From Schmidtea polychroa (taxonomy: Eukaryota): a stretch of 64,000 nt of DNA. The stretch lies in the NCBI GenBank assembly GCA_044892525.1, contig CM097885.1, positions 24,926,001 through 24,990,000 on the forward strand. Reading direction: 5' to 3'. Positions 5,637 to 62,596 of the stretch are shown in pieces. A program made the translations under genes and the position numbers. The first letter of the stretch is position 1. Each line of letters opens with the position of its first letter. The notes beneath the pieces were generated by a model that did no database searches, was not told the origin of the DNA, and saw only the letters and a program-made list of their open reading frames with translations.

Positions 5637-7652
5637 AGTAGTATGATTGGAGCCCTCCAGAACAGGAGCCCGCCACGACACATATACCCCCCTCCCCCCC
5701 GGGAAATTTTTTTTTTAAATAAAAGGTCAAGCTCAAGGTCATTTTTTTTTGTTTTATTAATTGATCCAGCGGGGTCACACTTTTTTTCATCCCAAAAATT
5801 AATGTTCCCGCCAACAGATTTTATTGGACGATACCTCATCTTAAAGCCCAATGCAAGACCTTTAAGATGTGTTATAGGTATTTTATATATCTTTAACAGT
5901 TTTAATGTTATTAACATTTGATGACCACCATCTTTTCAAAGATAAATTATTATTATTTTCAAAATATTATTAATTGATCCAGAGGGCTCACACTTTTTTT
6001 CATCCAAAAATTAATGTTCCCATTATTCGAATTTATTAGTTGATAGCTTAATTTGAAGCTTAGTGCAAGACCTTTCAATGAGCTATTGAAGGTATCATCA
6101 TCATTAATATTGGGAAAGATACTAACGTTTTCCCGAGACCATTTTCAAGGTCATATAATTATTATTATTATTCAAAATATTATTAATTGATCCAGAGGGC
6201 TCACACTTTTTTTCATCCCAAAAATTAATGTTCCCATCATTTTATTTCATCGATCGATAGCTTATTTTGAAGCCCAGTGCAAGATATATCTATTGATATA
6301 TAAATATTATTATTATCATTATTATAGGCAAAATTATTAACGTTTTCCCGAGACCATTTTCAAGGTCATTTAACTATTTTATTATTTTTTCAAAATATTA
6401 TTTTTAAGGTCATTTATTTTTTCAAGGTCATTTATTATTTTCAATGTCAAATTTTAAACAAAGACATATGACTCATCAAGGTCATTTATAATTTTCAAGG
6501 TCATTTATTTTTTCAAGGTCATTTATTTTTCAAGGTCATTTATTATTTTTAAGGTCATTTATTTTTTCAAGGTCAAATTTTAAACAAAGACATGACTCAT
6601 CAAGGTCATTTATTTTTTCAAGGTCATTTATTTTTTTCAATGTCCTTTATTTTTACAAGGTCATTTATTTTTTCAAGGTCATTTATTTTTTCAAGATCGC
6701 GTGACTCTTCCAAGGTCATTCCAAAGGTCATATGACTCATTAGGATGAATCATCAAGGTCATATTATTATTTTTTAAAATATTATTATTATTTTTCAAAA
6801 ATATTATTAAGTGGTCTGGCGGGCTCCTGGTTTTCGTTTGCCCAAAAGTTATCGTTCCCATTATCCGAATTTATTAATCAAACACTTAATTTGAAGCTTA
6901 GTGCAAGACCTTTCGAATGAGCTATTGGAGGTATCATCATCTTTAATATTGGGAATGTTTTGGAAACGTTTTCCCGAGACCATTTTCAAGGTCATTTGAC
7001 TATTTTATTATTATTTTTTCAAAATATTATTTTTCAAGGTCATTTATTTTTTCAAAGTCAGGGTCAAGGTCATTTATTTTTTCAAAATATTATTTTTCAA
7101 GGTCGTTTATTTTTTCAAGGTCATTTATTTTTTCAAGGTCATTTATTTTTAGTAACATTTTAAATCTATTTTTAGTAACATTTTCGAACCGATGTTTTAA
7201 TTATCGATTATGTATTAATTTGATATTGTTTAAATCATTGATTATATTATATTATTTTTTGTTTTAATTATCGATTATTATTATTATTAATCTATATACT
7301 CCTAGTCTATCCGACAAGATATTCTGTCCCCCTATGGGTATTGCTCATATGGGTAATGGTCACAAGGGTACTGCTCACATTATTATTAAATTCTGACCAA
7401 CTTAAATCAATGAAGGGGTAGAACAAAAATATATTACTTTGCGGTATTTTAAATTTAAAAATATTTTAAAAACTTATTTTGACACTAAAGTTTACTTAAT
7501 TAACAAAGACATAATTATTGCACATGCTTTGCATAAATATTATTATTTTTTAAATTTTCAATATTTTCTTTTAAAGTATTAACACGCGCGGGAGTTATTA
7601 TTATTAGTGAAAACCTATAATATTTTTTACACACACACACAACCCATTAACA

Positions 7653-14450: not shown

Positions 14451-16479
14451 ATTCCGAAAAATAAATAGTTTTAAAAAATAAAAACATAAAATACTATTGA
14501 ATCTAATCTAGAAAAATTTATTTCCAAAACAATCCAGCACCATACCTATTTAGCACATCGAATACACAATGACTGAAACATAATTGCGAAAGGTACGATA
14601 GTCTATCCAAAGGAGTAAAATCCACTGTTGGGTGTGGCATAGAGAGCAGTAGAATATCAGCATTTTGTCGATTGTCTTTTCCAGTGATCGTCGAGATATT
14701 TAGTAAATTTCCAATCGGTGTTGATGACGACGATAGAATTCCACAATGAGAGCTCACATCAGCCGAGTCTGTAATTTCCATAAACAGGCCTTCAGTGAGA
14801 ATCATGCGACATATGGAATATTTGTGAAACTAGCATATACCAAATTCATTAGATAAAGTAGCGACATTCAAGTCTGAGAGTAGAACAAACACACGAGAGT
14901 TCGCATGACAAATACACAGAGCACATGGATATGCATACATCGTAGTTACGATCGGTGACATTCATATGAGAAAGATAAGATTATTCTCACGTAAACATCC
15001 ATAGTAGTTAACTTTACCATATGCCATACCGATGGAAATTTTCATCTCTGAGAGGCCATAACGGATAAGTGTGCTAGAATAGCAGCTGACCTGAGACTAC
15101 TACACTCAAGCTGTTATTTCTCCGATATCACAGTGATAGAGATTTGCTTAGGCCAGTATCGAAATAAATTGTATAATCAGTAACCGATGTTATGAGGTAC
15201 GAAAACTCTCAAAGTGCACTTGTTGGAAAATTGCCAATTAAATATTTTGAATAATCGTAGTAATTTTAAATTAGGATTTATAGATAGTAGTGGGATGTGT
15301 CACCACTGGCACATGTCACCTCTGGCACACTACCCCCCCGGGGGGTGTAAACGAAAAAAATTTTTTCAAGGTCAAATTTTAAACAAAGACATATGACTCA
15401 TCAAGGTCATTGAAACAAAGACCATGACTCATCCTATGACTCATCAAGGTCACTGAAACACAGACCATGACTCATCAAGATCATTGGATGACTCATCAAG
15501 CTCATTGAAACAAAGACCATGACTCATTCAAGGTCATTGGATGACTCGTCAAGGTCATTGAAACAAAGACCATGACTCATTCAAGGTCAAAGGATGACCC
15601 TCAAGGTCATTGAAACAAAGACCATGACTCACTCAAGGGCATATGATGACTCATCAAGGTCATATTTTTAAGGTCAAGGTCATATTTTTAAAGGTCAAGG
15701 ACATATTTTTAAAGGTCAAGGCCATATTTTTAAAGGTCAAGGTCATATTTTTTAAGGTCAAGGTCATATTTTTTAAGGTCAAGGCCATATTTTAAGGTCA
15801 AACTTTCACCAAAGGGTATCATTCGAAAGGTATTTGAGAGGTCTATCTAATGGTTATACCTTCGAAGGTGTATGGTGGGTCCTCGGCCTTCAAAGGGTCA
15901 AAAACCTTCGAATTTTTTCAAACTTTATCATATATATATATCATTCGAAAGGTATTTGAGAGGTCTATCTAATGGCTATACCCTCAAAGGTGGGTCAATA
16001 ACCTTCAAAGGGTGTCCAAAATTAAATATTTTTAAAACCGTACAATATTTCAAAAGGACTTTTGATGGTGAGTTCGAAGGTCGAACGGTTCAAAAATTTT
16101 AAAACCTTATAATATACATATCAAACAAAAGGTATTTGAGATGTAAGTATCATGGTAACCATAAAATATTTCAAAAGGACTTTTGATGGTGAGTTCGAAA
16201 GTTGAAGGGTTCAAAAATTTTAAAACCTTATAATATACATATCAAACAAAAGGTATTTGAGATGTAAGTATCATGGTCATACTTTCAAAGGTCATATTTT
16301 ACAAGATGGCGGCTATATAATTTAATTAAAGATTGCGTGTGTGTATTTTCTTAAAATTAATATTTAATCCTTTGCTTGGATTTTATTGATCAAGGGGTCA
16401 TTTTAAAAGGTAATTCAAAGGAGAATCCGTGCGCGTGTTGTCTTAATTTGTTTTATTAAAGTAATAATATTATTATTAT

Positions 16480-16552
<73 letters not shown>

Positions 16553-16641
16553 CTATATACTCCGAGTCTATCCGACAAAATATTTTGTCCCCCTATTGGT
16601 AATGCTCACAAGGGTACTGTCACGCTCAACAACTCGCAATG

Positions 16642-16690
<49 letters not shown>

Positions 16691-16700
16691 TGTTATTATA

Positions 16701-16757
<57 letters not shown>

Positions 16758-16831
16758 TTTACTATTATTATTATCATTATTATTGGGAAAGATATTAAAA
16801 TTATTATTATTATTTTCAAAATTTTAATCAA

Positions 16832-16893
<62 letters not shown>

Positions 16894-17134
16894 TTTGGAA
16901 ATTTCTAATTATTATTTTAATTTAGAAGTTTCATTATTATTATTTACTTAAATATTTATAAAATATTTATAATTTCTACATCAATTACATGATTTTCAAC
17001 ATTTTCATCATTTGCATGATTATTTTAATAATTTTCTACATTTTCATGATTATTTCAGGATTTTTTCATCAAATATTTTTCAAAGTATTATTTTCAAATT
17101 ATTTTCAAAGTTTTTATCAATATTATTATTATTA

Positions 17135-17193
<59 letters not shown>

Positions 17194-17570
17194 TGCGAAG
17201 TTCTCATTATTTTATTTTCGATGTTTTATTATTATTTACTTAAATATTCATAAAACTTAATTTCTGCCTCAATTTACGATTTTCAATATTTGATGATTAT
17301 TTTCAGGAACATTTTCATAATTTTTAACGTTTTCATCATTTTCAATATTTTCATTATTTTCAACATTTTCATTATTTTCCATATTTTCACGATTTTCAAC
17401 ATTTTCAGGAACATTTTCATCATTTTCTATATTTTCATGATTTTTAACATTTTCATAATTTTCACGATTTTCAATATTTTCATCATTATTTTCTTCAAAA
17501 TTCTTAGTTTATTTATAAAATATCATTTTCAAAATTATTTTCAAATTTCTTATTATTTATTTTCAAAGTA

Positions 17571-17652
<82 letters not shown>

Positions 17653-18015
17653 CTATATACTCCGAGTCTATCCGACAAAATATTTTGTCCCCCTATGGGT
17701 ACTGCTCACACTCAACAGGTTGCAAGGTTACTAGTCATGCTTATTATTATTGTTATACAATATGATGTTACTTAGACATTTGAAGGTTCAACCATGGTTA
17801 CAATTTCTAAATTTTGAAAACTCTAATTTGATTGGCTATCTCAATTTTTATAAATGTAAAAACAAAAGTAATTTAGTTATTAAGAAATTTATTTATTACT
17901 GATTTCTACAAGTATGCATATGAATGTGTAAATCACAAAACACATTTGGTAACTTTATTATTTTGTCAATATTTTTTATATATGTCACTTATAGCAAGGA
18001 AGTCCTACTAGAAAT

Positions 18016-18358
18016 ATGGAAAAATTAAGTCCAACCTATTCCGAAGATAAGCGTTCATTGAAATTTTTCAACAACACAGTTGAAGATTTTATAAATAATC
18101 ATGATACTTACAGTGATAAGCAAATCATAAATATTTTAAAAATTTTCAAACATTCCTCTATTGAATATTTGATTGATTTATTTAATTATGATAAATGCAT
18201 TTTGAAGTTATTTAATGTATTTAGAAAAAACAGTGGTAAACAACGATTCACTGAATGAATACTTTTGGAGTTGCATATATTTAAGGTTGAAAACGGGATA
18301 TAGTAGATTGATTTATGAATGGATAGCAAAAGCCGACTTGATTGAAAATAAGCTAACT
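18016..18358 (+). pseudogene. Left-arm copy of an unknown ORF (MEKLSPTYSEDKRS...), frameshifted in an A-run
   Basis: Matches ORF 19947-20363; the frame is lost at AGAAAAAACAGTGG (~18225). Confidence 0.65.
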
Positions 18359-19946
18359 ATCTTTATTGAAAATATTTTATGATTTTAATTAGATTTCTAG
18401 AAATTAAATCGGTTGAATAAAGGTAAAATTTATTGAAGGAATATTGTTATCGGATGGATAAATCTTTCAATGATATTTTACTAAATTACCTTTTGCTAAA
18501 TAATAAATGACTAAACATGACAAAGTTAACCAATAAATTAGTCGCTCGAAATAAGAATTCGGTAAGTTACATTCAAATTATTCACGAATTTCTGATATCT
18601 ATGATCATCCATTTCTCACTAAATTACCTAAGAATTTTTAACTAATATGCATAGGCCTTAATTAATATACCCTTGCGACATGTTGAATGTGACCAGTACC
18701 ATTACGATAAATACACGTAGGGAGACAGAATATTTTGTCGGATAAATTCAGACTATATATAAAAACTTACAATATGCTATGGTTTTTATTGATTAATTTG
18801 TTGTATATTGCATTGATACATCAAAATGTCAGATTATATTTATAAATTAACTAAAAAATACTATATTACCTAAGAATTCAGTTATGTTTCTAGTTAAATA
18901 ATTGAAATAATTGGTATATGTATCAACTATATCAAAATATTTGTTATGAATCCTAGAATATTTTAATTAAATGGTACAGCCAAAAACCAGGGATTTCTAA
19001 CTAAATTGGTAAATTTATCTGGAAATATTTTACTTAAGAAATCGCTATATTTAAAATAACCATGTACTTTTCACTAAATTGCCTAAAAATTTGCTATATG
19101 GTATTGTTAAATAAAATAATCATAATAATAAATAATAATATTATGTCAGGGCATGAAAAAATAATATAATTGTATGACTAATAAATTTGCAATACAAGTG
19201 CATAATTAACAAAGACTTTGCAATAAATGGGCATGATTAACAAAGACACTAGAAATATTATCTTTGCATTTGGTCGAAGATGATTATGGCAGTAATATCA
19301 GAGGAGAATAAATGGAAAGAAGAAAAGCATCATTATGATTTATAATAATTGTAAATATAATTGTAAATATAATTGTATATATAATTGTAAATTTCCATAT
19401 ATACAAATAACACTATTTAAAAATTAATACAAATATTAAAACAAAATGAATTAATAATGAATATGTTTTAGTCAAAAGGTATTAGAATAAAACAATAAAT
19501 TTATAAAAACAAATTAAAAGATTTATTTACGAAACAATAATAACCAATACTACTGTAACACATAATATCAACTTTAAAATATTGATTAGGGTTTCTTCGG
19601 CTTTTCCAGCATCTTCATGGTTCTTGCGAAGATCTTTTCCCATTTTGATGAACTCGTGGGTATATTTCATTCTGAATAATCTAAAAATAATATTATAAAT
19701 ACCAAACCATCCAATATATCATCAACATTTGGTAGTTGCGCCCAATATATTTAATTACCAAGATGATTTCATATTATTCAATGTTTGAAAATTTTCTACA
19801 TTATAGTACCGTCATTATGTATGGTAATAATTCATTTGACTTTGATATTGTATTGATTTGTATTGAGAACTTACATGTATATAGTGTGATATTCATTATT
19901 CAGTGTTGAACAGGCTTGACAATTGTGAACATTCTCCTCGTGACAC

Positions 19947-20363
19947 TTAGAACAAACAATTACGTGACCACACGGTAAATACAAAACCGAAACTTTTCTT
20001 AACATCGTTCAGTTTTTCCGTTAGCTTATTTTCAATCAAATCGGCTTTTGCTATCCATTCATAAATCAATCTACTATATCCCGGTTTCAACCTTAAATAC
20101 ATGCAACTCCAAAAGTATTCATTCAGTGAATCGTTGTTTACCATTGTTTTTTTTCTAAATACATTAAATAACTTCAAAATGCATTTATCATAATTAAATA
20201 ATTCAATCATATATTCAATAGAGGAATGTTTGAAAATTTTTAAAAGATTTATGATTTCCTTATCAGTGTAAGTATCATGATTATTTATAAAATCTTCAAC
20301 TGTGTTGTTAAAAAATTTCAATGAACGCTTATCTTCGGAATAGGTTGGACTTAATTTTTCCAT
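19947..20363 (-). CDS. Unknown 138-aa protein carried by element B; may continue into the decayed core
   Basis: ATG-initiated, non-repetitive ORF with an inverted paralog that differs by conservative substitutions. Confidence 0.55.
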   Translation of the reverse strand: MEKLSPTYSEDKRSLKFFNNTVEDFINNHDTYTDKEIINLLKIFKHSSIEYMIELFNYDKCILKLFNVFRKKTMVNNDSLNEYFWSCMYLRLKPGYSRLIYEWIAKADLIENKLTEKLNDVKKSFGFVFTVWSRNCLF

Positions 20364-20732
20364 ATTTCTAGTAGGACTTCCTTGCTATAAATGACATATA
20401 TAAAAAATATTGACAAAATAATAAAGTTACCAAATGTGTTTTGTGATTTACACAATCATATGCATACTTGTAGAAATCAGTAATAAATAAATTTCTTAAT
20501 AACTAAATTACTTTTGTTTTTACATTTATAAAAATTGAGATAGCCAATCAAATTAGCGTTTTCAAAATGTAGAAATTGTAACCATGGTTGAACCTTCAAA
20601 TGTCTAAGTAACATCATATTGTATAACAATAATAATAAGCATGACTTACCCTTGCAACATGTTGAGTGTGAGCAGTACCCATAGGGGGACAAAATATTTT
20701 GTCGGATAGACTAGGAGTATATATATTAATAC

Positions 20733-20921
<189 letters not shown>

Positions 20922-21302
20922 TAATAATATACTTTGAAAATAAATAATAAGAAATTTGAAAATAATTTTGAAAATGATATTTTATAAATAAACTAAGAAT
21001 TTTGAAGAAAATAATGATGAAAATATTGAAAATCGTGAAAATTATGAAAATGTTAAAAATCATGAAAATATAGAAAATGATGAAAATGTTCCTGAAAATG
21101 TTGAAAATCGTGAAAATATGGAAAATAATGAAAATGTTGAAAATGATGAAAACGTTAAAATTATGAAAATGTTCCTGAAAATAATCATCAAATATTGAAA
21201 ATCGTAAATTGAGGCAGAAATTAAGTTTTATGAATATTTAAGTAAATAATAATAAAACATCGACAATAATAATATTAGTAATAATATTACTAATAATAAT
21301 AA

Positions 21303-21374
<72 letters not shown>

Positions 21375-21379
<5 letters not shown>

Positions 21380-22035
21380 TTTTGAAAATAATAATAATAT
21401 TTTGAAAATAATATTTTGAAAAATAATAATATTTTGAAAAATAATAATATGACCTTGAAAATAATAATATTTTGAAAAATAATAATATGTCCTTGAAAAT
21501 AATAATATTTTGAAAAATAATAATATGACCTTGAAAATGATAATATTTTGAAAAATAATAATATGACCTTGAAAATAATAATATTTTGAAAATAATAATA
21601 TGACCTTGAAAATAATAATATGACCTTGAAAATAATAATATGACCTTGAAAATAATAATATTTTGAAAATAATAATATGACCTTGAAAATAATAATATGA
21701 CCTTGAAAATAATAATATTTTGAAAATAATAATATGACCTTGAAAATAATAATATTTTGAAAATAATAATATGACCTTGAAAATAATAATATGACCTCGA
21801 AAATAATAATATTTTGAAAAATAATAATATGACCTTGAAAATAATAATATTTTGAAAATAATAATATGACCTTGAAAATAATTATATTTTGAAAAATAAT
21901 AATAAGACCTTGAAAATAATTATATTTTGAAAAATAATAATATGACCTTGAAAATAATAATATTTTGAAAAATAATAATATGACCTTGAAAATAATAATA
22001 TTTTGAAAAATAATAATATGACCTAGAAAATAATA
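21375..22035. repeat. Array of AATAATAATATGACCTTGAA / AATAATAATATTTTGAA units
   Basis: Directly visible tandem units containing TGACCTTGA. Confidence 0.9.
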
Positions 22036-22762
22036 AAATAATAATTATAATGTTATAATAATAATATTAATACCCTTGCGACATGTTGAATGTGACCAGT
22101 ACCCTTACGACAAATACATAGGGGGACAGAATATTTTGTCGGATAGACTAGGAGTATATAATAATAATAATATTGATTAAAACTTTGGAAATAATAATTT
22201 TGAAAATAACATCTTCCGCGCGGGAGGTAATATCTTTCCAAATATTAATGATAAATTAAATTATTACGTAATCGAAATTTAAAACAAAAAAAAATATTAT
22301 ATAATTAACGATTTAAATAAAATTAAATTATTACGTATTCGATAATTAAAACAAAAATAAAAATAATATATAATCAACGATTTAAACAAAATTAAATTAT
22401 TACGTATTCGATAATTAAAACAAAAAAAAATAAAAATATTATTATATAATTAACAATTTAAACAAAATTAAATTATTACGTAAACAAAAAATAAACCGCT
22501 GGAATAAAAATAGATGTCTTTGTTACTAAAAATAGAACGACCTTGGTGAGTCATCGGATCAAAAATGTTACTAAAATTATATTAAAAATGTTACTAAAAA
22601 TAGATGTCTTTGTTACTAAAAATAGAATGACCCTGGTGAGTCATCGGATCAAAAATGTTACTAAAAATAGATGTCTTTGTTACTAAAAATAGAACGACCT
22701 TGGTGACTCAGCGACTGAGTCATTGTCTTTGTTTAAATTACCTTGATAATTAAAACTTAATG

Positions 22763-22819
<57 letters not shown>

Positions 22820-23569
22820 TTAATAATAAATTTTGAAAATATCTTCGAAAATAATAATAATAATAATAAATAATAATAATAATAATACATTTGATAGTAA
22901 TAAATAATAAATCCCATGGGCGCGTAATTGTCTATGTTCTGAAAATGATGAGTTTGTTCAAAAAATAAATGAGTCATCGATGAGTACTTTTTTATTACCG
23001 TTTGTTTGATATGTATATTATAAGGTTTGAAAAATTTAAACCTTGGATCCTTGGACTCTTTTGACCTTCAAACTTGGACCATCAAACTCATCTTTGAATT
23101 ACCTTTTGTTTGATATGTATATTATAAGGTTTTAAAATTTTTGAACCTTGGACCCTTCGACCCTTGGACCTTCGAACTCTTATTATTATTAGTAACATCA
23201 CCTTTTGAATGATATATATATTATATGATTTGAAAAATATTTAATTTTGGATAGGTTATTGAAGGTTATTGACCCACCATATACCTTTGAGGATATAGCC
23301 ATTAGATAGACCTCTCAAATACTTTTTGACTGATATATATATTATAAAGTTTGAAAAAATTCGAAGGTTTTTGACCCTTTGAAGGCCGAGGACCCACCAT
23401 AGACCTTCGAGGGTATGACCATCATACTTACCTCTCAAATACCTTTCGACTGATATATATATTATAAAGTTTGAAAATATTCGAAGGTTTTTGACCCTTT
23501 GAAGGTTATTGACCAACCATACACCTTCGAGGATATGACCATTAGATAGACCTCTCAAATACCTTTCGA

Positions 23570-23617
<48 letters not shown>

Positions 23618-24829
23618 AGTTTGAAAAAATTCGAAGGTTTTTGACCCTTTGAAGGTTATTGACCAACCATACACCTTCGAGGGTATGACCATAAGATAGA
23701 CCTCTCAAATACCTTTCGAATAATACCCTTTAGTGAAGGTTTGACCTTAAAATTATGACCTTGGCCTTAAAAAATGACCTTGACCTTTAAAAATATGACC
23801 TTGACCTTTAAAATATGCCCTTGACCTCAAAAATGACCTTGACCTTCAAATATGACCTTGGCCTTTAAAAATATGACCTTGTCCTTAAAAATATGACCTT
23901 GACCTTAAAAATATGACCTTGAATGAGTCATGGTCTTTGTTTCAATGACCTTGAAGAGTCACCCAATGACCTTGATGAGTCATGGTCTTTGTTTCAATTA
24001 CCTTGATAAGTCATAGGGTGAGTCATGGTCTTTGTTTCAATGACCTTGCTGAGTCATAGGATGAGTCATGGTCTTTGTTTCAATGACCTTGATGAGTCAT
24101 ATGTCTTTGTTTAAAATTTGACCTTGAAAAAAAAATTTCGTTTACCCCCCGGAGGGTAGTGTGCCAGAGGTGACATGTGCCAGTGGTGACACATCCTACT
24201 ACTATAGATAACACTCGTAATTTGCTCAATAGGCGTTATAGATAATCATACAAAGTTTCAATTAATGGTGATCAACAATTCATCGAAATTTTGATTAAAT
24301 GTTATAACATTATTATTACTATAATATTATTTTATTATTATTATTAGATTATTATTATAATATTATTAAACATTATAAACCCTCAAACCATCAAGTATAA
24401 AATTGTCAAGTGGGGAAAAGAGGAAGAGTTTTGGGGAGGTAACTAGCGCCGATATAGTGTAATGATCGATCTAAAATGAAATCCAGTATTCGTAGAAAAA
24501 TTTTAGAGTTAGTAAATGTACTCCATTTAAAAATTCTTCCAGTTAATTCATTTGCATTCGTCAAGTCGATAGTAGTTATTATTAATTAAATTTGTGTAAA
24601 TAATGTAGAGTAGAAACGAGCTGTCGTCTGAGGGAAAATTCCCTTACCTATCTAATCAGTTCTTCTTTTTCTGTTAAACATCCAAGGTAGTAACGGAGTA
24701 GTTGCACCAAATATATGACATCTCGAACATCATATCTTAATCTCATCTTTATAGCTATGCAACATGATGCCAAATGCCAAGCCCGTTTTACGTCCTGTAC
24801 TACGCCCTTGCTTCTCCTGCTAGCACAAA

Positions 24830-38756: not shown

Positions 38757-39090
38757 TTCATACTACTTATATATACTACTCATTAACCTGTATTTCGGAT
38801 AAAAATTTATATCTTATATACAATCCTTCGTACTACTTATATATACTACTCATTAACCGTATTTCGGATAAAAATTTATATCTTATATACAATCCTTCGT
38901 ATTACTTATATATACTACTTATTAACCGTATTTCGGATAAAAATTTATATCTTATATACAATCCTTCATACTACTTATATATTCTACTCATCAACCTGCA
39001 TCTCGGATAAAAATTTATATCTTATATACAATCCTTCATACTACTTATACATACCTATTCATTAACCGGTATCTCGGATAAAAATTTATA
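38757..39090. repeat. 69-70-bp tandem repeat, ~4.7 copies, upstream of the decayed pPolB
   Basis: Unit TACTACTTATATATACTACTCATTAACCGTATTTCGGATAAAAATTTATATCTTATATACAATCCTTC(G/A). Confidence 0.92.
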
Positions 39091-50660: not shown

Positions 50661-50769
50661 AGTAGATGGATTGGGCACCGCTGGCACAGGGCACCGCTAG
50701 CACAGTACCCCCCCCCTCCCCCCCGTCGGTAAGATTTTCAAAAATATTCTAAGTCTAAAAGTACATTTT

Positions 50770-51345
50770 TTTTCAAGGTCAAATTTAAACAAAGACATAT
50801 GACTCATCAAGGTCATTGAAACAAAGACCATGAGTCATCCTATGACTCATAAAATTTTTCAAGGTCATTTAAACAAAGACCATGACTCATCCGATGACTC
50901 ATCAAGGACATTTTCAAGGTCATGACTCATAGTATGACTCATATGACCTTGAAAAAAATTTTTCAAGGTCGTATGACTCATCCTATGACTCATCAAGGTC
51001 ATTGAAACAAAGACCATGACTCATAGTATGACTCATATGACCTTGAAAATTTTTTTCAAGGTCATATGACTCATCCAATGACTCATCAAGGGCATTTTCA
51101 AGGTCATATGACTCATAGTATGACTCATTAGACCTTGAAAATTTTTTTCAAGGTCATATGGCTCATCAAGGTCATTCTCAAGGTCATATGACTCATCCGA
51201 TGACTCATCAAATTTTTCAAGGTCATTTTCAAGGTCATCTGAGTCATCCTATGGCTCATCAAGGTCATTTTCAAGGTCACATGACTTATCCAAGGTCATT
51301 CCCAAGGTCATATGAGTCATCGCGATGACTCATCAAGGTCATATT
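50770..51345. promoter_or_regulatory. Subterminal array of TGACTCA, TCAAGGTCA and AACAAAG motifs (left arm; mirrored at ~61948-62480)
   Basis: Roughly 20 TGA(C/G)TCA and a similar number of (T/C)CAAGGTCA, counted by eye. Function is inferred only. Confidence 0.5.
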
Positions 51346-51497
51346 ATTATTTTTAAAAAATATTATTATTTTTATTATTATTTTTAAAAATATTATTATT
51401 TTATTTTTAATTTTTTCAAAGTTCCCGCCAACGAAAATTAATAATCGATAGCTCATTTTAAAGCTCAATCCAAGACCTTTCGAATGAGCTATATAAC

Positions 51498-51532
<35 letters not shown>

Positions 51533-51555
51533 ATTATTATTATTATTATTATTAA

Positions 51556-51620
<65 letters not shown>

Positions 51621-51745
51621 GTATTAATCTATATACACCGAGTCTATATACTCTGAGTCTATCCGACAAAATATTTTGTCCCCCTATGGGTAATGCTCAC
51701 AAGGGTACTGGTCACGCTCAACAAATCAACAAAACATACATTTAT

Positions 51746-52177
51746 TTAAACAATAAAATAATGTAAAATTAACAAAGGTAAACTAAATATTGATGCACTT
51801 CTATTCGCAGCATTATTGTTAGAAATTGGTAACGTTGAATTGATTTTCAGATATTCTATTGATCCTTTGATTGTTTGAATTTCTCTTAATAATAATTCAA
51901 TCTTTTTTAACAAATAATCATGCTTCTTATCAATAATCTTCATATTCTTTTTATTTTCAGTAATAGAGTTATTGAAAACCTCAATATGATCAATCAATTT
52001 AATTTTTATATTTTGTATATATTCAAATGTTAGTTCATAACTGTTTTCTAAATTCTCCAATCTTTGAGATATTCTTTTTCCTGGATGCTTTGACCATTTT
52101 GGTTTATCGAGAATATATAAAATATCCATCAACTTGGCTGTATTCGGACAAACACATATTGATTTATTAAAAATCAA
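51746..52177 (-). CDS. Unknown small coiled-coil protein with hydrophobic C-terminus (left arm); start uncertain
   Basis: 143-codon non-repetitive frame downstream of polB, identical in both arms. The listed start is TTG. Confidence 0.5.
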   Translation of the reverse strand: MIFNKSICVCPNTAKLMDILYILDKPKWSKHPGKRISQRLENLENSYELTFEYIQNIKIKLIDHIEVFNNSITENKKNMKIIDKKHDYLLKKIELLLREIQTIKGSIEYLKINSTLPISNNNAANRSASIFSLPLLILHYFIV

Positions 52178-52251
52178 AATAGAGCTTTCAAAATGTAACC
52201 ATCAAATGTATAACAATAGCATGACTAGTACCCTTTGCAACCTGTTTAAAG

Positions 52252-52312
<61 letters not shown>

Positions 52313-52320
52313 ATTATTAA

Positions 52321-52372
<52 letters not shown>

Positions 52373-52412
52373 ATTAATATTATTAATATTATTATTATTA
52401 TTATTTCATTGA

Positions 52413-52556
52413 TATAGCTGCATGCCCACTGCAGACTATATAAAACATATAGCTGCATGCTCACTGCAGACTATATAAAACATATAGCTGCATGCTCACT
52501 GCAGACTATATAAAAAAAACATATAGCTGCATGCTCACTGCAGACTATATAAAAAT
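52413..52556. repeat. 35-bp tandem repeat ATAGCTGCATGCTCACTGCAGACTATATAAAACAT; 4 copies left, 2 copies right (~60704-60773)
   Basis: Directly visible. Confidence 0.9.
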
Positions 52557-52767
52557 CACCATTAAATATAAAAAAATTATAATAAAACACCAAATACTTA
52601 AAAAATCTGATTAAAAATTTTATTGAATATGTATATATAAATACAAGTTTTATACAATATACAGGTTTTTGTACAAGTTTTTAAATAAAAGTTTCTATAC
52701 AATTTTTTATAAATCATGAAATCACTATACAAGTTTTTATAAATCAAAAATATAAAGTTTTTTCTAT

Positions 52768-55700
52768 TTAAATTTGATCTTCGTCCCATTCGCTGTCGTC
52801 AAAACTGGGACTTGGAGCTGGACCGAATTCCTCATCATATTCGCTTAATTCGTCAACTCCTAAATAGTGCCCAAATGCGTAACTTAAGTTTTTTCCTAGC
52901 CACGCGCGCTTATCATCATTATTACTTAGGGCAATTTTCGAATTTTTAAAAGTAAAAAGTTGGTGATTTCTAGTACCTATTCTAGTCTGCGGTACAGAAA
53001 TCACCTGATTTGAATGAAAGCAATTTAGATATGATTCGTGATTTATTGATGTCCCTGGTAATTTAACCCCTTTCGCTTTTACCGTTTCCTTACTACCTAA
53101 AAGACTATAACATTTAGGGCGTAAGAAAACCCATTCAGAATACCCTAATCCCTTGCTCTCATCTTTAAACTTCCCGATGACCGAGTCAAGGTTCCTACTA
53201 TACAAGGGGTGGGTTGGATCGTAATTTGACGTATCCAATAAATTATCAGAGATCATCTGAGGTAATAAAGTTGTTAATTTTAAATTTTTTATTTCCAAAA
53301 AGAAACTGTCGGTATCACCGGCAATAATATTTATGATACATTTATATTGGCGTCTGTACTTCTCCAAATCAATATATTGGAGCTGGTACATCCGCAGTTT
53401 AGACAGATCTAGTACTGTTTGACCAATGTAGCTAGGTCTGTCTAAACAAATCACATCTTTTTCCAAATGTGCCGCAATCAGATCTTGATCGATTCTTATG
53501 GACTTTCTGAAAGTCGGCTTTGAGGAGTATACTATCATCTTTTCGGATGAATTACACAACCTCAAATTCATTCTTTTTTTCAAATTTTCAACCGATTTAC
53601 CGTAAAGAGAGTTATTATACAATTTAAACAAGTCCCTATATATCTCACTAGTAGACTGAGATCGTAAAGTGGTGTTGGTGTCTATGTAGGATTTAAAGAT
53701 AGGTCCTTGTTTAAACTTTATACACCTATGAATATTTACAACAACCGCACCTAATTCTATATACAATTTGAGAAGCCTCCAATGAAGAACATAGTTCCTC
53801 TTTGGCCAATGCGTAAGCATAAGCTTCTCAACTTTTGAATTAGGCGGGCACAACTTTTCCGGCGCAAGCGGAAAATCATTCAAAAAGTCATGCACACATT
53901 CCGGAATATCGATATCGACCTCCATAGTATACCCATATGGAAGGTTATCAATATCCGTGTTCATACATTCAAGTAAAACATCATTCAAGTTATTATTCAC
54001 CCAAGAAAAATCACCATACGGAAGATTTTGGCTAAGAGCCCAACCATACAGATTATTTATATCAATGTACAATAATTCTGTATCATCTGAAGTAGCCGTG
54101 TAATGTTTGTTAACAAATGTTAACCCACCCCGGATACCTCCCTCATAGAAATTATACATTTCCATGTCCTGCAGAAGTTCTATTGGTTCCGTTAATGTCA
54201 TAAGCGCTGAGGCCCATGACATACCGGGAATCCCGTAGAAATTAAGAGGATCCAGACCATTGTAAGCAATTGCCTTACCGCGGAATTGCTGAAAATAATC
54301 TGCGAGGAGGTATACGTCCAATTTTAGGTAGATTAACATATAATCTAACAAATTATTACAGTTATGCTGACTCCAAATTAGTTGAGCCTCAGCGTACTGA
54401 TCTTCCGTAACATCAGACCAAATAGGAGGTAATTCTAAAGTCGATTCAAGAACATCTAAAGAAGTGGCGAAATTATATGGAAAGATACCTTTAGAGTGAA
54501 TCATCGACCCTTGAAAGACAGACGAAGTCAAAGGAAAAGTAGTTAAGGTTTTCACAGCTTTTGCTAAAGAACAATTAACAAATTGCATGCTGTCAATAAA
54601 ACGAACAGGCAATTTGTTAATATATGCAATTAAAGATATAAATTTTTCTGTAGAGGTAGGTATAATATTAAGTTCCCAAAGGGGAAAATCACTGAGACCA
54701 TGTTTTAAAATATGGTGGAGGTCATAGCCTCGTAAATTATGAAAGACAACAGGTAACAATTTATTAATCCTGCGAGAGACATTGCATTTCCTACATGCCG
54801 CTCCGACATATCTACCTGTAAAATGGCAATGATCTCTCACAGGATTAATAATAGATTTTTTACACAAATAACAAATAGTGGAAGATCGAAAGGCACGCTC
54901 CTGAGCAAAAGACAAAGTAGACATACCTTTACGACCTTCAAGATCATAATATGGCAGGACAATTGTGACAGCAATTTCCTCCACTTTCCTCAAAAAATCC
55001 AAAATACAATTAGGTCCAAAAAAATAATAATAAAATTTAGTGTGTGTATAATTATTAATTAATAAAAGACCTGCTGATATGGGTAAATGTATTTGATGAT
55101 ATGTTTCATGTTCTGGTAAAACCGATTCAAAATCGGCATAAATTACGAAGGGAGGTGTAACTGTTTTCGCGTAATCTGTGAATAATAAATCTTTATTTTT
55201 AGGAAGTGTATACAAAGTTGTGCCAGTCTGATTTTTACAGCATAGAGCAACATGCTGATCGAAAGCATTCTTATATCTAAAGCCATTTAAACAATGAGGG
55301 CACCAGTTACACCTTATTTGAACATTTACATTTTCATTTTCATGACAATTCATTAATTTGTCCAAGTCTGTCACGGCTGTATAATGATATTTATCTTTAT
55401 TACTCAAAAGTAATAAATAAATTGGTCTACCGTCTATAACCTTGGAGCGATGTACTATATTAAGATGAGGGTGGTGAGCTACATAATCCTCAGAAATATC
55501 TAAATCAGAACTGGCTGGATTATAAGACAGAACGTTTATGCTCAAGTTTAAATCTCTATTTTTTCTTTCAAATTTGGGAATGTTGCATAGCCTCATCGGG
55601 CAATCAGTGTCTTCGTCATAATTTAATAGAGGTAAAAATTCTATATATTTGGCGGCTCTTTGGTGATTACGACCTATTTCTTCTCTTTTTAAAAGTGCAA

Positions 55701-56763
55701 GAATGCTATACAAGAAGCACTTATGGTCGTTGTTTTTTACATTAATTATTGCATGTTTTAATTTTAATGCTGATGGGGTTTTTATATAGCTATGTCCGGA
55801 TAATCTACTGACGGGTGCGTATTTCGTTAAAATAAAATCTATTTCTAAAATATTCATTACTCGCCACCCGCTTCCTAAATAGGTGAATTGCTCAATCTTT
55901 TCATTTAATTTGCTCACCCCCTCGTTTATAAAGTTTGATGTAAAAACTTGAGCATTGTTCGAAAAATAATTATCCCGGATCTCCCCATCTTTTTCAAATT
56001 TAATTAAAATTGTGAATTGAATTTTTACATTGCCCATCTTTTCTATTTCCTGTATTAATCTATCTTCAATTTTTGATGTTAGGGCTATTTTTACTAAGTT
56101 TTGATTTCTAATATCAAATCTTAAAGTTTTACGCGATCCGTTCAAATCGGATTCTACCATAGGTTCAAACAAAGAGCCGCCTATTTGGCATATGTTCAAA
56201 GACGTTGAAGCTACACATTCATCATTGATGACTATCACTTCTTGTTGTGTAATGGGTGCGTGTTGTGTAATGGGTGCTTGGTGTGTAAACGATGTTGAAG
56301 CTACACATTCATCTTTGCTGATGACTATCACTTCAGGTCGCGATAATTTATTAGGAATGCAATTTTTAATTAAACCAGCAGGTCTTTTAATAGAATCTTT
56401 TTTAATATTTATAATATCTTTTTTAATAATATTTATAGTATCTTTTTTAATAGCATCTTTTTTAATATTTGAATCTTTAATAATATTTTTTTTATTTTTT
56501 TTAATATTTTTTTGCAAATTTTTTTGTAAATTATTTTCTAAATTTTTTTGTAAGTTTTTTTGTAATTTATTTTCTAATTTTTTTTTTTTATTTAATTTTT
56601 TATTTATTTTTTTAAATAAAACATTTTTTGATATCGAAAATTGCCCTAAGTGATTATGATGTTTATTAAAAAATTCCCTATATTTTATTTTTTCGCTCGT
56701 TACACATTTGGGGCATATAAAAAAGTTGACAGAATTAAACTTTTTTCGGTAATATTTTGTCAT
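52768..56763 (-). CDS. polB: Protein-primed family B DNA polymerase, Polinton type, intact, 1331 aa
   Basis: ATG at 56763. Motifs GSGW, INVKNNDHKCFLYSI (OTU-like), YADFES (ExoI), CYLC..VRDHCHFTG.Y.GAAC.KCN (EndoVII/HNH-like), FHNLRGYD (ExoII), KGIFPY, YLKLDV, YIDINNLYG, KLYNNSLYGK, GDTDS, RPKCY and KAKG. Confidence 0.96.
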   Translation of the reverse strand: MTKYYRKKFNSVNFFICPKCVTSEKIKYREFFNKHHNHLGQFSISKNVLFKKINKKLNKKKKLENKLQKNLQKNLENNLQKNLQKNIKKNKKNIIKDSNIKKDAIKKDTINIIKKDIINIKKDSIKRPAGLIKNCIPNKLSRPEVIVISKDECVASTSFTHQAPITQHAPITQQEVIVINDECVASTSLNICQIGGSLFEPMVESDLNGSRKTLRFDIRNQNLVKIALTSKIEDRLIQEIEKMGNVKIQFTILIKFEKDGEIRDNYFSNNAQVFTSNFINEGVSKLNEKIEQFTYLGSGWRVMNILEIDFILTKYAPVSRLSGHSYIKTPSALKLKHAIINVKNNDHKCFLYSILALLKREEIGRNHQRAAKYIEFLPLLNYDEDTDCPMRLCNIPKFERKNRDLNLSINVLSYNPASSDLDISEDYVAHHPHLNIVHRSKVIDGRPIYLLLLSNKDKYHYTAVTDLDKLMNCHENENVNVQIRCNWCPHCLNGFRYKNAFDQHVALCCKNQTGTTLYTLPKNKDLLFTDYAKTVTPPFVIYADFESVLPEHETYHQIHLPISAGLLLINNYTHTKFYYYFFGPNCILDFLRKVEEIAVTIVLPYYDLEGRKGMSTLSFAQERAFRSSTICYLCKKSIINPVRDHCHFTGRYVGAACRKCNVSRRINKLLPVVFHNLRGYDLHHILKHGLSDFPLWELNIIPTSTEKFISLIAYINKLPVRFIDSMQFVNCSLAKAVKTLTTFPLTSSVFQGSMIHSKGIFPYNFATSLDVLESTLELPPIWSDVTEDQYAEAQLIWSQHNCNNLLDYMLIYLKLDVYLLADYFQQFRGKAIAYNGLDPLNFYGIPGMSWASALMTLTEPIELLQDMEMYNFYEGGIRGGLTFVNKHYTATSDDTELLYIDINNLYGWALSQNLPYGDFSWVNNNLNDVLLECMNTDIDNLPYGYTMEVDIDIPECVHDFLNDFPLAPEKLCPPNSKVEKLMLTHWPKRNYVLHWRLLKLYIELGAVVVNIHRCIKFKQGPIFKSYIDTNTTLRSQSTSEIYRDLFKLYNNSLYGKSVENLKKRMNLRLCNSSEKMIVYSSKPTFRKSIRIDQDLIAAHLEKDVICLDRPSYIGQTVLDLSKLRMYQLQYIDLEKYRRQYKCIINIIAGDTDSFFLEIKNLKLTTLLPQMISDNLLDTSNYDPTHPLYSRNLDSVIGKFKDESKGLGYSEWVFLRPKCYSLLGSKETVKAKGVKLPGTSINHESYLNCFHSNQVISVPQTRIGTRNHQLFTFKNSKIALSNNDDKRAWLGKNLSYAFGHYLGVDELSEYDEEFGPAPSPSFDDSEWDEDQI

Positions 56764-56770
56764 TGTTATT

Positions 56771-59700
56771 AAATATTATTAAAGATTCAAATATTAAAAA
56801 AGATGCTATTAAAAAAGATACTATAAATATTATTAAAAAAGATATTATAAATATTAAAAAAGATTCTATTAAAAGACCTGCTGGTTTAATTAAAAATTGC
56901 ATTCCTAATAAATTATCGCGACCTGAAGTGATAGTCATCAGCAAAGATGAATGTGTAGCTTCAACATCGTTTACACACCAAGCACCCATTACACAACACG
57001 CACCCATTACACAACAAGAAGTGATAGTCATCAATGATGAATGTGTAGCTTCAACGTCTTTGAACATATGCCAAATAGGCGGCTCTTTGTTTGAACCTAT
57101 GGTAGAATCCGATTTGAACGGATCGCGTAAAACTTTAAGATTTGATATTAGAAATCAAAACTTAGTAAAAATAGCCCTAACATCAAAAATTGAAGATAGA
57201 TTAATACAGGAAATAGAAAAGATGGGCAATGTAAAAATTCAATTCACAATTTTAATTAAATTTGAAAAAGATGGGGAGATCCGGGATAATTATTTTTCGA
57301 ACAATGCTCAAGTTTTTACATCAAACTTTATAAACGAGGGGGTGAGCAAATTAAATGAAAAGATTGAGCAATTCACCTATTTAGGAAGCGGGTGGCGAGT
57401 AATGAATATTTTAGAAATAGATTTTATTTTAACGAAATACGCACCCGTCAGTAGATTATCCGGACATAGCTATATAAAAACCCCATCAGCATTAAAATTA
57501 AAACATGCAATAATTAATGTAAAAAACAACGACCATAAGTGCTTCTTGTATAGCATTCTTGCACTTTTAAAAAGAGAAGAAATAGGTCGTAATCACCAAA
57601 GAGCCGCCAAATATATAGAATTTTTACCTCTATTAAATTATGACGAAGACACTGATTGCCCGATGAGGCTATGCAACATTCCCAAATTTGAAAGAAAAAA
57701 TAGAGATTTAAACTTGAGCATAAACGTTCTGTCTTATAATCCAGCCAGTTCTGATTTAGATATTTCTGAGGATTATGTAGCTCACCACCCTCATCTTAAT
57801 ATAGTACATCGCTCCAAGGTTATAGACGGTAGACCAATTTATTTATTACTTTTGAGTAATAAAGATAAATATCATTATACAGCCGTGACAGACTTGGACA
57901 AATTAATGAATTGTCATGAAAATGAAAATGTAAATGTTCAAATAAGGTGTAACTGGTGCCCTCATTGTTTAAATGGCTTTAGATATAAGAATGCTTTCGA
58001 TCAGCATGTTGCTCTATGCTGTAAAAATCAGACTGGCACAACTTTGTATACACTTCCTAAAAATAAAGATTTATTATTCACAGATTACGCGAAAACAGTT
58101 ACACCTCCCTTCGTAATTTATGCCGATTTTGAATCGGTTTTACCAGAACATGAAACATATCATCAAATACATTTACCCATATCAGCAGGTCTTTTATTAA
58201 TTAATAATTATACACACACTAAATTTTATTATTATTTTTTTGGACCTAATTGTATTTTGGATTTTTTGAGGAAAGTGGAGGAAATTGCTGTCACAATTGT
58301 CCTGCCATATTATGATCTTGAAGGTCGTAAAGGTATGTCTACTTTGTCTTTTGCTCAGGAGCGTGCCTTTCGATCTTCCACTATTTGTTATTTGTGTAAA
58401 AAATCTATTATTAATCCTGTGAGAGATCATTGCCATTTTACAGGTAGATATGTCGGAGCGGCATGTAGGAAATGCAATGTCTCTCGCAGGATTAATAAAT
58501 TGTTACCTGTTGTCTTTCATAATTTACGAGGCTATGACCTCCACCATATTTTAAAACATGGTCTCAGTGATTTTCCCCTTTGGGAACTTAATATTATACC
58601 TACCTCTACAGAAAAATTTATATCTTTAATTGCATATATTAACAAATTGCCTGTTCGTTTTATTGACAGCATGCAATTTGTTAATTGTTCTTTAGCAAAA
58701 GCTGTGAAAACCTTAACTACTTTTCCTTTGACTTCGTCTGTCTTTCAAGGGTCGATGATTCACTCTAAAGGTATCTTTCCATATAATTTCGCCACTTCTT
58801 TAGATGTTCTTGAATCGACTTTAGAATTACCTCCTATTTGGTCTGATGTTACGGAAGATCAGTACGCTGAGGCTCAACTAATTTGGAGTCAGCATAACTG
58901 TAATAATTTGTTAGATTATATGTTAATCTACCTAAAATTGGACGTATACCTCCTCGCAGATTATTTTCAGCAATTCCGCGGTAAGGCAATTGCTTACAAT
59001 GGTCTGGATCCTCTTAATTTCTACGGGATTCCCGGTATGTCATGGGCCTCAGCGCTTATGACATTAACGGAACCAATAGAACTTCTGCAGGACATGGAAA
59101 TGTATAATTTCTATGAGGGAGGTATCCGGGGTGGGTTAACATTTGTTAACAAACATTACACGGCTACTTCAGATGATACAGAATTATTGTACATTGATAT
59201 AAATAATCTGTATGGTTGGGCTCTTAGCCAAAATCTTCCGTATGGTGATTTTTCTTGGGTGAATAATAACTTGAATGATGTTTTACTTGAATGTATGAAC
59301 ACGGATATTGATAACCTTCCATATGGGTATACTATGGAGGTCGATATCGATATTCCGGAATGTGTGCATGACTTTTTGAATGATTTTCCGCTTGCGCCGG
59401 AAAAGTTGTGCCCGCCTAATTCAAAAGTTGAGAAGCTTATGCTTACGCATTGGCCAAAGAGGAACTATGTTCTTCATTGGAGGCTTCTCAAATTGTATAT
59501 AGAATTAGGTGCGGTTGTTGTAAATATTCATAGGTGTATAAAGTTTAAACAAGGACCTATCTTTAAATCCTACATAGACACCAACACCACTTTACGATCT
59601 CAGTCTACTAGTGAGATATATAGGGACTTGTTTAAATTGTATAATAACTCTCTTTACGGTAAATCGGTTGAAAATTTGAAAAAAAGAATGAATTTGAGGT

Positions 59701-60491
59701 TGTGTAATTCATCCGAAAAGATGATAGTATACTCCTCAAAGCCGACTTTCAGAAAGTCCATAAGAATCGATCAAGATCTGATTGCGGCACATTTGGAAAA
59801 AGATGTGATTTGTTTAGACAGACCTAGCTACATTGGTCAAACAGTACTAGATCTGTCTAAACTGCGGATGTACCAGCTCCAATATATTGATTTGGAGAAG
59901 TACAGACGCCAATATAAATGTATCATAAATATTATTGCCGGTGATACCGACAGTTTCTTTTTGGAAATAAAAAATTTAAAATTAACAACTTTATTACCTC
60001 AGATGATCTCTGATAATTTATTGGATACGTCAAATTACGATCCAACCCACCCCTTGTATAGTAGGAACCTTGACTCGGTCATCGGGAAGTTTAAAGATGA
60101 GAGCAAGGGATTAGGGTATTCTGAATGGGTTTTCTTACGCCCTAAATGTTATAGTCTTTTAGGTAGTAAGGAAACGGTAAAAGCGAAAGGGGTTAAATTA
60201 CCAGGGACATCAATAAATCACGAATCATATCTAAATTGCTTTCATTCAAATCAGGTGATTTCTGTACCGCAGACTAGAATAGGTACTAGAAATCACCAAC
60301 TTTTTACTTTTAAAAATTCGAAAATTGCCCTAAGTAATAATGATGATAAGCGCGCGTGGCTAGGAAAAAACTTAAGTTACGCATTTGGGCACTATTTAGG
60401 AGTTGACGAATTAAGCGAATATGATGAGGAATTCGGTCCAGCTCCAAGTCCCAGTTTTGACGACAGCGAATGGGACGAAGATCAAATTTAA
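56771..60491 (+). CDS. polB: Inverted duplicate of pPolB lacking the first ~92 codons and the native ATG
   Basis: Protein is identical to the minus copy from NIIKDSNIKK to the stop. The listed start is TTG; the first in-frame ATG is at ~57099 (MVESDL). Confidence 0.9.
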
Positions 60492-60806
60492 ATAGAAAAA
60501 ACTTTATATTTTTGATTTATAAAAACTTGTATAGTGATTTCATGATTTATAAAAAATTGTATAGAAACTTTTATTTAAAAACTTGTACAAAAACCTGTAT
60601 ATTGTATAAAACTTGTATTTATATATACATATTCAATAAAATTTTTAATCAGATTTTTTAAGTATTTGGTGTTTTATTATAATTTTTTTATATTTAATGG
60701 TGATTTTTATATAGTCTGCAGTGAGCATGCAGCTATATGTTTTATATAGTCTGCAGTGGGCATGCAGCTATATCAATGAAATAATAATAATAATAATATT
60801 AATAAT

Positions 60807-60879
<73 letters not shown>

Positions 60880-60887
60880 TTAATAAT

Positions 60888-60970
<83 letters not shown>

Positions 60971-61044
60971 CTTTAAACAGGTTGCAAAGGGTACTAGTCA
61001 TGCTATTGTTATACATTTGATGGTTACATTTTGAAAGCTCTATT

Positions 61045-61476
61045 TTGATTTTTAATAAATCAATATGTGTTTGTCCGAATACAGCCAAGTTGATGGATAT
61101 TTTATATATTCTCGATAAACCAAAATGGTCAAAGCATCCAGGAAAAAGAATATCTCAAAGATTGGAGAATTTAGAAAACAGTTATGAACTAACATTTGAA
61201 TATATACAAAATATAAAAATTAAATTGATTGATCATATTGAGGTTTTCAATAACTCTATTACTGAAAATAAAAAGAATATGAAGATTATTGATAAGAAGC
61301 ATGATTATTTGTTAAAAAAGATTGAATTATTATTAAGAGAAATTCAAACAATCAAAGGATCAATAGAATATCTGAAAATCAATTCAACGTTACCAATTTC
61401 TAACAATAATGCTGCGAATAGAAGTGCATCAATATTTAGTTTACCTTTGTTAATTTTACATTATTTTATTGTTTAA
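61045..61476 (+). CDS. Unknown small coiled-coil protein (right-arm copy)
   Basis: Identical to 51746-52177. An in-frame ATG at 61000 is separated from it by TGA at 61018. Confidence 0.5.
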   Translation: MIFNKSICVCPNTAKLMDILYILDKPKWSKHPGKRISQRLENLENSYELTFEYIQNIKIKLIDHIEVFNNSITENKKNMKIIDKKHDYLLKKIELLLREIQTIKGSIEYLKINSTLPISNNNAANRSASIFSLPLLILHYFIV

Positions 61477-61601
61477 ATAAATGTATGTTTTGTTGATTTG
61501 TTGAGCGTGACCAGTACCCTTGTGAGCATTACCCATAGGGGGACAAAATATTTTGTCGGATAGACTCAGAGTATATAGACTCGGTGTATATAGATTAATA
61601 C

Positions 61602-61770
<169 letters not shown>

Positions 61771-62596
61771 TAATAATTAATAATAATAATAAGTTATATA
61801 GCTCATTCGAAAGGTCTTGGATTGAGCTTTAAAATGAGCTATCGATTATTAATTTTCGTTGGCGGGAACGTTGAAAAAATTAAAAATAAAATAATAATAT
61901 TTTTAAAAATAATAATAAAAATAATAATATTTTTTAAAAATAATAATATGACCTTGATGAGTCATCGCGATGACTCATATGACCTTGGGAATGACCTTGG
62001 ATAAGTCATGTGACCTTGAAAATGACCTTGATGAGTCATAGGATGACTCAGATGACCTTGAAAATGACCTTGAAAAATTTGATGAGTCATCGGATGAGTC
62101 ATATGACCTTGAGAATGACCTTGGTGAGTCATAGGATGAGTCATATGACCTTGAAAAAAATTTTCCAATGTCATATGAGTCATACTATGAGTCATGGTCT
62201 TTGTTTCAATGACCTTGATGAGTCATAGGATGAGTCATATGCCCTTGAAAAATTTTTTCAAGGTCATATGAGTCATACTATGAGTCATATGACCTTGGAA
62301 ATGACCTTGATGAGTCATGGTCTCTGTTTAAATGACCTTGAGAAAATTTTTTTGACCTTGGTGAGTCATATTATGAGTCATATGACCTTGAAAATGTCCT
62401 TGATGAGTCATCGGATGAGTCATGGTCTTTGTTTCAATGACCTTGATGAGTCATATGTCTTTGTTTAAATTTGACCTTGAAAAAATGTACTTTTAGACTT
62501 AGAATATTTTTGAAAATCTTACCGGCGGGGGGGGAGGGGGGGGTACTGTGCTAGCGGTGCCCTGTGCCAGCGGTGCCCAATCCATCTACTGACCTA

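Follow-up and report, generated by a model that had tools for sequence, protein, structure and literature searches.

Paired 16-base boxes and sub-terminal motif arrays at the ends of Polinton/Maverick-derived elements in Schmidtea polychroa

Three sequence-divergent elements, designated A, B and C, lie within the 64,000-nucleotide stretch of Schmidtea polychroa DNA analysed here (the window), and each appeared to begin with the same arrangement, a 12-base head starting AGTAG followed by two tandem 16-base repeats. A first-pass annotation read this arrangement as a protein-priming origin with subfamily-specific binding sites, and likened part of the repeats to an NFI half-site. The locus raises the question of whether this layout is a genuine property of element ends, how far it extends among related elements, and what the paired repeats (hereafter boxes) might do.

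The 12+16+16 layout and the elements that carry it

The layout was found at five ends of three Polinton/Maverick-derived elements. The left-end strings of A, B and C were recovered exactly, with the claimed spacing, starting at 5637, 15286 and 50661, and the same layout is additionally present at the right ends of B (24203, minus strand) and C (62590, minus strand). The terminal features are as follows.

5637..5680, plus strand: left head and two boxes of A, boxes 13/16 alike
15286..15329, plus strand: left head and two boxes of B, boxes 15/16 alike
24160..24203, minus strand: right head and two boxes of B, 43/44 identical to the left end of B
50661..50672, plus strand: left head of C, 12 bases that begin with AGTAG (integration end and putative motif for jump-back priming, from sequence and contig boundary)
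50673..50704, plus strand: left paired 16-base boxes of C, in tandem, 15/16 alike
50708..50724, plus strand: left C-tract of C
62547..62590, minus strand: right head and two boxes of C, 44/44 identical to the left end of C

The 12+16+16 pattern is real. AGTAG occurs 88 times in the window, and six of these sites precede a 16+16 pair (offset 12, at most five mismatches), namely the five ends and a duplicate of the B right end offset by three bases; the remaining 82 sites show at least seven mismatches in the same test. When 16-base tandems with no more than three mismatches were sought throughout the window, eight loci emerged, five of which are these element ends, and block shuffles (32 bases each) gave p = 1.5e-5 for A and no equal in 200,000 for B or C. 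All five ends begin with AGTAG (AGTAGT in A and B) and have GAT at positions 9-11 and ACA at 26-28 and 42-44. The C-tract said to follow each end starts at position 48-51, the tract at the right end of B being interrupted.

The coding content and extent of the elements were then compared with those of autonomous Polintons.

15286..24203, no strand: element B, 8.9 kb, with terminal inverted repeats of ~650 bases and a 6-bp target duplication
50661..62590, no strand: element C, an 11,930-base near-perfect palindrome with a 6-bp target duplication, inside a LINE reverse-transcriptase gene
52768..56763, minus strand: left polymerase ORF of C, a protein-primed family B DNA polymerase of 1331 aa with an endonuclease VII-like insert
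56489..56770, no strand: unique palindrome centre of C, 282 bases, holding the 5' end of the left polymerase ORF
57099..60491, plus strand: mirror polymerase ORF of C, without the 5' part

Both B and C have perfect 6-bp target duplications and terminal inverted repeats starting with an AG-type motif, the hallmarks by which Polinton/Maverick elements are recognised, which bears out the annotation's premise that these are true element ends. Its further premise, that the elements carry a protein-primed polymerase, is borne out in C only, and integrase was found in none of the three. None of the polymerase, integrase, ATPase or protease queries used matched B, and a tblastn search of the window with four integrases and with ATPase-like and protease-like queries from distant elements likewise gave no match. 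B and C are thus non-autonomous Polinton/Maverick derivatives without the autonomous gene set (integrase, packaging ATPase, protease, capsid). For A, neither a right end nor a target duplication was found in the window. An internal inverted duplication was also observed in B (window 17062-21423), within which a 138-aa ORF without a recognised family is present twice.

The arms of C hold only the polymerase and a 127-aa ORF, and its core arms are identical at 3973 of 3973 positions. A search with the C polymerase retrieved 2517 relatives among 7999 scored candidates, most of those listed having PF03175 and/or PF02945; a direct Pfam scan of the C polymerase itself gave a weak PF02945 match and no match to PF03175. 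An assembly artefact was considered for the palindrome and rejected, as the flanks are not mirrored, a 6-bp duplication is present, and one LINE frame continues. The simplest account would be that synthesis begun at one end reversed direction close to where the polymerase gene starts, yielding two identical ends. Copy-back or fold-back defective genomes are known in linear viruses; C is similar to these in consisting of a single end with its neighbouring genes followed by the same stretch in reverse, and unlike them in being integrated with a target duplication. No paper combining copy-back and Polinton terms was found in the literature search. The clean insertion of C, whose two ends are identical, indicates that a single type of end is sufficient.

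The three elements are relatives and not independent cases. B and C have 34 of 44 terminal bases in common and ~72% identity over positions 120-400, and A has 24-28 of its 44 terminal bases in common with B or C. Shared sub-terminal arrays, described below, and a shared 87-base internal module (window 7293, 8178, 16554, 17654, 51630 and 51645) place A, B and C in one lineage of Polinton/Maverick derivatives.

Within one element the two boxes are alike at 13, 15 and 15 of 16 places (A, B and C, respectively), whereas the same box compared between elements is alike at 7-13 of 16, so that the pair evolves in concert. Identical changes in both boxes number six for A/B, four for A/C and two for B/C, with p = 3e-4, 3e-3 and 0.016; a lenient null raises these values to 0.01, 0.03 and 0.05, and the three comparisons are interdependent. 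These comparisons demonstrate concerted evolution of the boxes, which alone does not imply a binding site. Tandem repeats of any kind normally change in concert.

Several other features of the window were recorded. Two bases from the head of A, a second head, AGTAGTA, reads outward, and the two together make up a perfect 16-base palindrome (window 5628-5643); the outward head comprises ~11 head-like bases only, with no arrays behind it, and the palindrome could be a relic of an end-to-end junction. A candidate end of a different Polinton family lies at 39598-41700, with an AGTAGT head, a 13-base inverted pair and no 16+16 pair, ~180 bases before a broken polymerase-like gene with a weak PF03175 match. 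No partner end was found for it; its first 12 bases equal those of a weak candidate end, L030, from the distant set described below. A 700-base repeat is present in three copies (28160-28900, 37406-38111 and 41687-42405), one of which cuts the broken polymerase-like gene, and a tandem array of ~69-base units, AGTAGTA-rich on the minus strand, occupies 38757-39090. Finally, a ~70-base palindrome of 16-base tandem units (2160-2229) lies upstream of a Tc5/pogo-type transposase fragment.

Copies in the host species and ends of distant Polintons

Contigs of 4 of 18 listed public runs of the host species were aligned to window 50600-50860; runs X7-X14, which had small shares, were left out, as was summed contig depth as a measure of copy number. 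Loose contig ends before 50661 were present in 23-38 contigs per run with an agreement of 0.42-0.46 (three runs), and this low agreement indicates a true boundary with many insertion sites. Places variable at 2% or more made up 2 of 44 terminal positions versus 14 of 62 adjoining ones (four runs; Fisher p = 0.012, or 0.010 without the C-tract and 0.068 for substitutions only), a comparison biased to conserved heads in that contigs with diverged heads were clipped or unplaced. With that bias, the terminal block is conserved among many copies, as the annotation had supposed.

Both variable terminal places fall in box 2, at ~10% of depth in run X2 and below 1% in X15 and X16, and for the double change in X2 no matching change in box 1 is listed. 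Among the 12 of 122 rows listed, one contig end has two 16-base units that both finish in ACCA instead of CACA, and two others read as head, a single 16-base unit and then the C-tract (depth ~300 of more than 1 million). Joints at 50688 were not counted as evidence for single-box ends, as box 2 can misalign onto box 1. Two claims of the annotation therefore stand in part. AGTAG, GAT and ACA are kept at all five ends in the window, but ACA is not invariant, given the ACCA variant; and the boxes change together beyond chance between families, but changes in one copy only occur among the contigs.

To look beyond the host species, relatives of the C polymerase were aligned, giving 2, 42 and 27 loci, from which eight candidate ends were readable. 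Placement is good for four of these (L024, L049, L134 and L152), whose contigs match both polymerase and rve-type integrase, the integrase matches in L049, L134 and L152 being below the Pfam cut-off. Of the others, L030 and L040 are weak candidates and L143 and L148 are without a head; a target duplication was confirmed in none of the eight. The 42 loci sit in prokaryote assemblies and are probably binning contaminants. Candidates at L045, L035, L048 and L056 were rejected as internal, and L137, which has paired repeats but an end that was not placeable, was left out of the eight.

Paired 16-mers were present in none of the eight distant candidate ends (2-6 of 16 alike), and GAT at 9-11 and ACA at 26 and 42 were absent from all eight, although a C-tract starts at 46-60 in three. 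The head of L024 matches that of C at 11 of 12 bases, yet no pair follows it. A quick-version polymerase tree, used solely for this placement, puts L024 and L049 outside the C clade. The 12+16+16 grammar is thus lineage-specific and is not needed by Polintons generally: the annotation's expectation that a larger set of termini would keep fixed spacing and paired 16-mers fails at the scale of the family and holds within the lineage. As a separate observation, L024 (72-100) and L049 (39-67) have seven identical bases at positions 23-29 from the end, possibly a different position-fixed box.

Scans of sequence collections for the layout returned five chance matches in viral contigs (one phage family, mismatched at 12 of 16), 18 in metagenomes (none with a tandem pair) and six in phage coding DNA, and further scans gave 0, 6 and 15 matches attributable to chance, apart from one of the 15, which is the L024 end already known. 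These collections hold few animal contigs, so the blank scans do not show absence. A single-protein search matched none of three stretches in viral contigs and gave no match in phage records.

Motif arrays behind the C-tract

Behind the C-tract, the elements carry arrays of TCAAGGTCA together with TGA(C/G)TCA, which we take to be an AP-1-type motif.

5720..7160, plus strand: sub-terminal array of A, 18 copies of TCAAGGTCA, all pointing inward
50773..51350, plus strand: left array of C, TCAAGGTCA and TGA(C/G)TCA, mostly inward (15 forward, 2 reverse)

End zones totalling 3.9 kb hold 69 of the 83 occurrences of TCAAGGTCA in the window, the other 14 being inside B and none elsewhere, and 58 of the 64 occurrences of TGA(C/G)TCA. 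Sixty-six of the 69 end-zone copies of TCAAGGTCA point inward. The combined pattern occurs 25 times in the window versus 0 in 100 shuffles, and the number of array units differs between the two ends of one element. According to the available part of a mouse study, TCAAGGTCA is the Esrrb motif, is also bound by Nr5a2, and has been spread by a SINE (10.1101/2022.05.17.492379). The elements described here are similar to that SINE in being mobile and carrying this ERR/NR5A motif; unlike it, they carry inward-pointing arrays, as putative receptor sites, in the Polinton ends of an invertebrate-type genome.

One distant end has a comparable arrangement. L049, whose polymerase is 28% identical to that of C, shows a C-tract (starting at position 46), then an AP-1-type motif (64) and then TCAAGGTCA (83), with similar motifs at the other end of the contig; the chance of this arrangement is ~3e-6, calculated after the fact. 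B and C have the AP-1-type motif and TCAAGGTCA in the opposite order. Among six matches from a pattern search of 30 genomes, L049 was the sole real end, and the combined pattern was found in these genomes only at both ends of the L049 contig (control 0). We would like to note that this Polinton contig, represented by L049 (39-130) and L107 and showing C-tract, AP-1-type and receptor-type motifs at both ends, was binned into a bacterial genome. The receptor-type motif is present in only one of the eight distant ends, and L152 has a C-tract and an AP-1-type motif only. Receptor-type and AP-1-type arrays behind the C-tract, found also at both ends of one distant Polinton, are new.

Possible roles of the paired boxes

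Polinton/Maverick ends were reportedly described by Kapitonov and Jurka in 2006, as cited in Barreat and Katzourakis 2021. In its available passages, PMC8097293 already proposes that AGT/AG end repeats serve jump-back priming in Polintons, and describes only 6-base end motifs, inward of which conservation falls less steeply. The ends studied here resemble those in having an AGT-type motif, a 6-bp duplication, long terminal inverted repeats and a protein-primed polymerase; they differ from the ends in those passages (PMC8097293) in their paired 16-base boxes, in their motif arrays and in the head of C, which is AGTAGA and not (AGT)2. The accessible portion of a report on a nematode Polinton repeat mentions putative transcription-factor sites (10.1101/2024.01.15.575659). 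In a literature search that covered mainly open-access papers, no title or start of abstract pointed to paired terminal boxes or such arrays in Polintons. The grammar is a lineage-specific version of a known kind of Polinton end.

Adenovirus origins offer the closest layout for comparison. As given in the available parts of the sources, the adenovirus ITR contains a core origin, an NF-I site and an NF-III/Oct-1 site, and simian viruses and old HAdV-E4 lack the NF-I site, so that helper sites differ between lineages (PMC6410123, PMC6141750); in adenovirus 2, NF-I binds bases 23-36 (PMC6410123). By analogy, the ends described here may be tiered in a similar manner, with a priming head and putative protein-binding segments within the first 50-90 bases. 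AGTAG at all five ends is a terminal short repeat that allows jump-back, and the boxes lie at the same distance from the end as the adenovirus 2 NF-I site. Unlike adenovirus origins, the ends lack both NFI and Oct-1 sites and have a direct tandem pair as their putative second tier, and the element itself integrates.

Our best reading, held tentatively, is an adenovirus-like tiered origin with family-specific boxes. At bases 1-12 the protein-primed polymerase would start and jump back on the AG/AGT repeat, and the integrase would join the end to host DNA, as is known for the family for both steps. The paired boxes (13-44) would most likely dock an element-coded protein at initiation, a role that we infer and consider quite possible without leaning on it. 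Slippage or template switching of the element polymerase may keep the boxes alike; the pattern is observed, and the mechanism is our suggestion. A change that spreads to both boxes would give each family its own version. Behind the C-tract, the array of ERR/NR5A-type TCAAGGTCA and AP-1-type TGA(C/G)TCA probably acts as an enhancer or origin helper, presuming that it is bound, and gene-poor B and palindromic C may keep their ends because these are needed in cis. Offset, period and copy number are fixed at five of five ends, and insertion of B and C was clean although no integrase is evident in either; both observations favour the tiered origin. Counting against it are the change confined to box 2, the single-unit contig ends, the absence of pairs from eight of eight distant ends, the presence of the receptor-type motif in only one of those eight, and the reversed motif order in L049.

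Some of these same observations would suit a neutral origin of the boxes, in which one 16-base duplication took place in the ancestor of the lineage, within a GC-rich spacer whose length and not sequence matters, and slippage has homogenised the copies since. Common ancestry of A, B and C, the 6-9 of 16 places per box at which A differs from B and C, the single-unit ends and box-2-only changes, and the distant Polinton with a C-tract at the same distance (46) and no repeat are all consistent with it. Nevertheless, three families and one contig variant all have two copies, next to arrays whose unit number varies, the block is less variable than the adjacent spacer even without the homopolymer, and both boxes retain their final letters where the remainder has changed heavily; we regard the neutral account as doubtful. 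That gene-poor B and palindromic C retain both ends with perfect 6-bp duplications would also fit boxes that serve as integrase or end-pairing sites without a priming role, like the sub-terminal repeats of cut-and-paste transposons; the ends of transposons often have inner binding sites in tandem. Retroviral-type integrases, however, contact roughly the last 16-20 bases, which would leave box 2 outside, and distant elements with the same rve-type integrase domain lack the pair, making this role unlikely.

The NFI half-site seen by the annotation invites the idea that the boxes recruit host NFI as in adenovirus, and TGGCA does occur at 22 and 38 in B and at 22 in C, overlapping the position of the adenovirus site. 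The half-site is absent, however, from A and from the second box of C, no end has a full palindromic site (the best match to the NFI consensus being 6 of 10 in all three), TGGCA/TGCCA turns up by chance 73 times across the window, and the ACCA-ending variant alters the motif too, so that the NFI resemblance does not hold up and NFI recruitment is very improbable. A single-strand hairpin formed by the boxes, suggested by an 8-pair stem in the first box of B, was rejected as exceedingly improbable: 0 of 11 strands (six ends) fold better than shuffles (z from -0.95 to +3.14), and C folds worse than all 200 of its shuffles.

The tiered origin could be extended further, to three-tier origins of Polintons. 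Behind a common head, a family-specific box address would choose the autonomous family by which a given satellite is copied, and a host-factor module of deep conservation (C-tract with AP-1-type and ERR/NR5A-type motifs) would make activation depend on the state of the host cell; the boxes and their reader would co-evolve. We give this extension a rather low probability. Were the boxes neutral, the finding would shrink to an ordinary lineage-specific repeat. As to what Polintons need in cis, the literature passages available offer only a 6-base end motif; the present ends provide 44-base natural candidates in three family versions. The motif array in a distant element and the gene-poor derivatives that keep their ends make this question one that binding and priming assays can address, and if the address reading is true, several Polinton families may coexist in one genome without copying each other.
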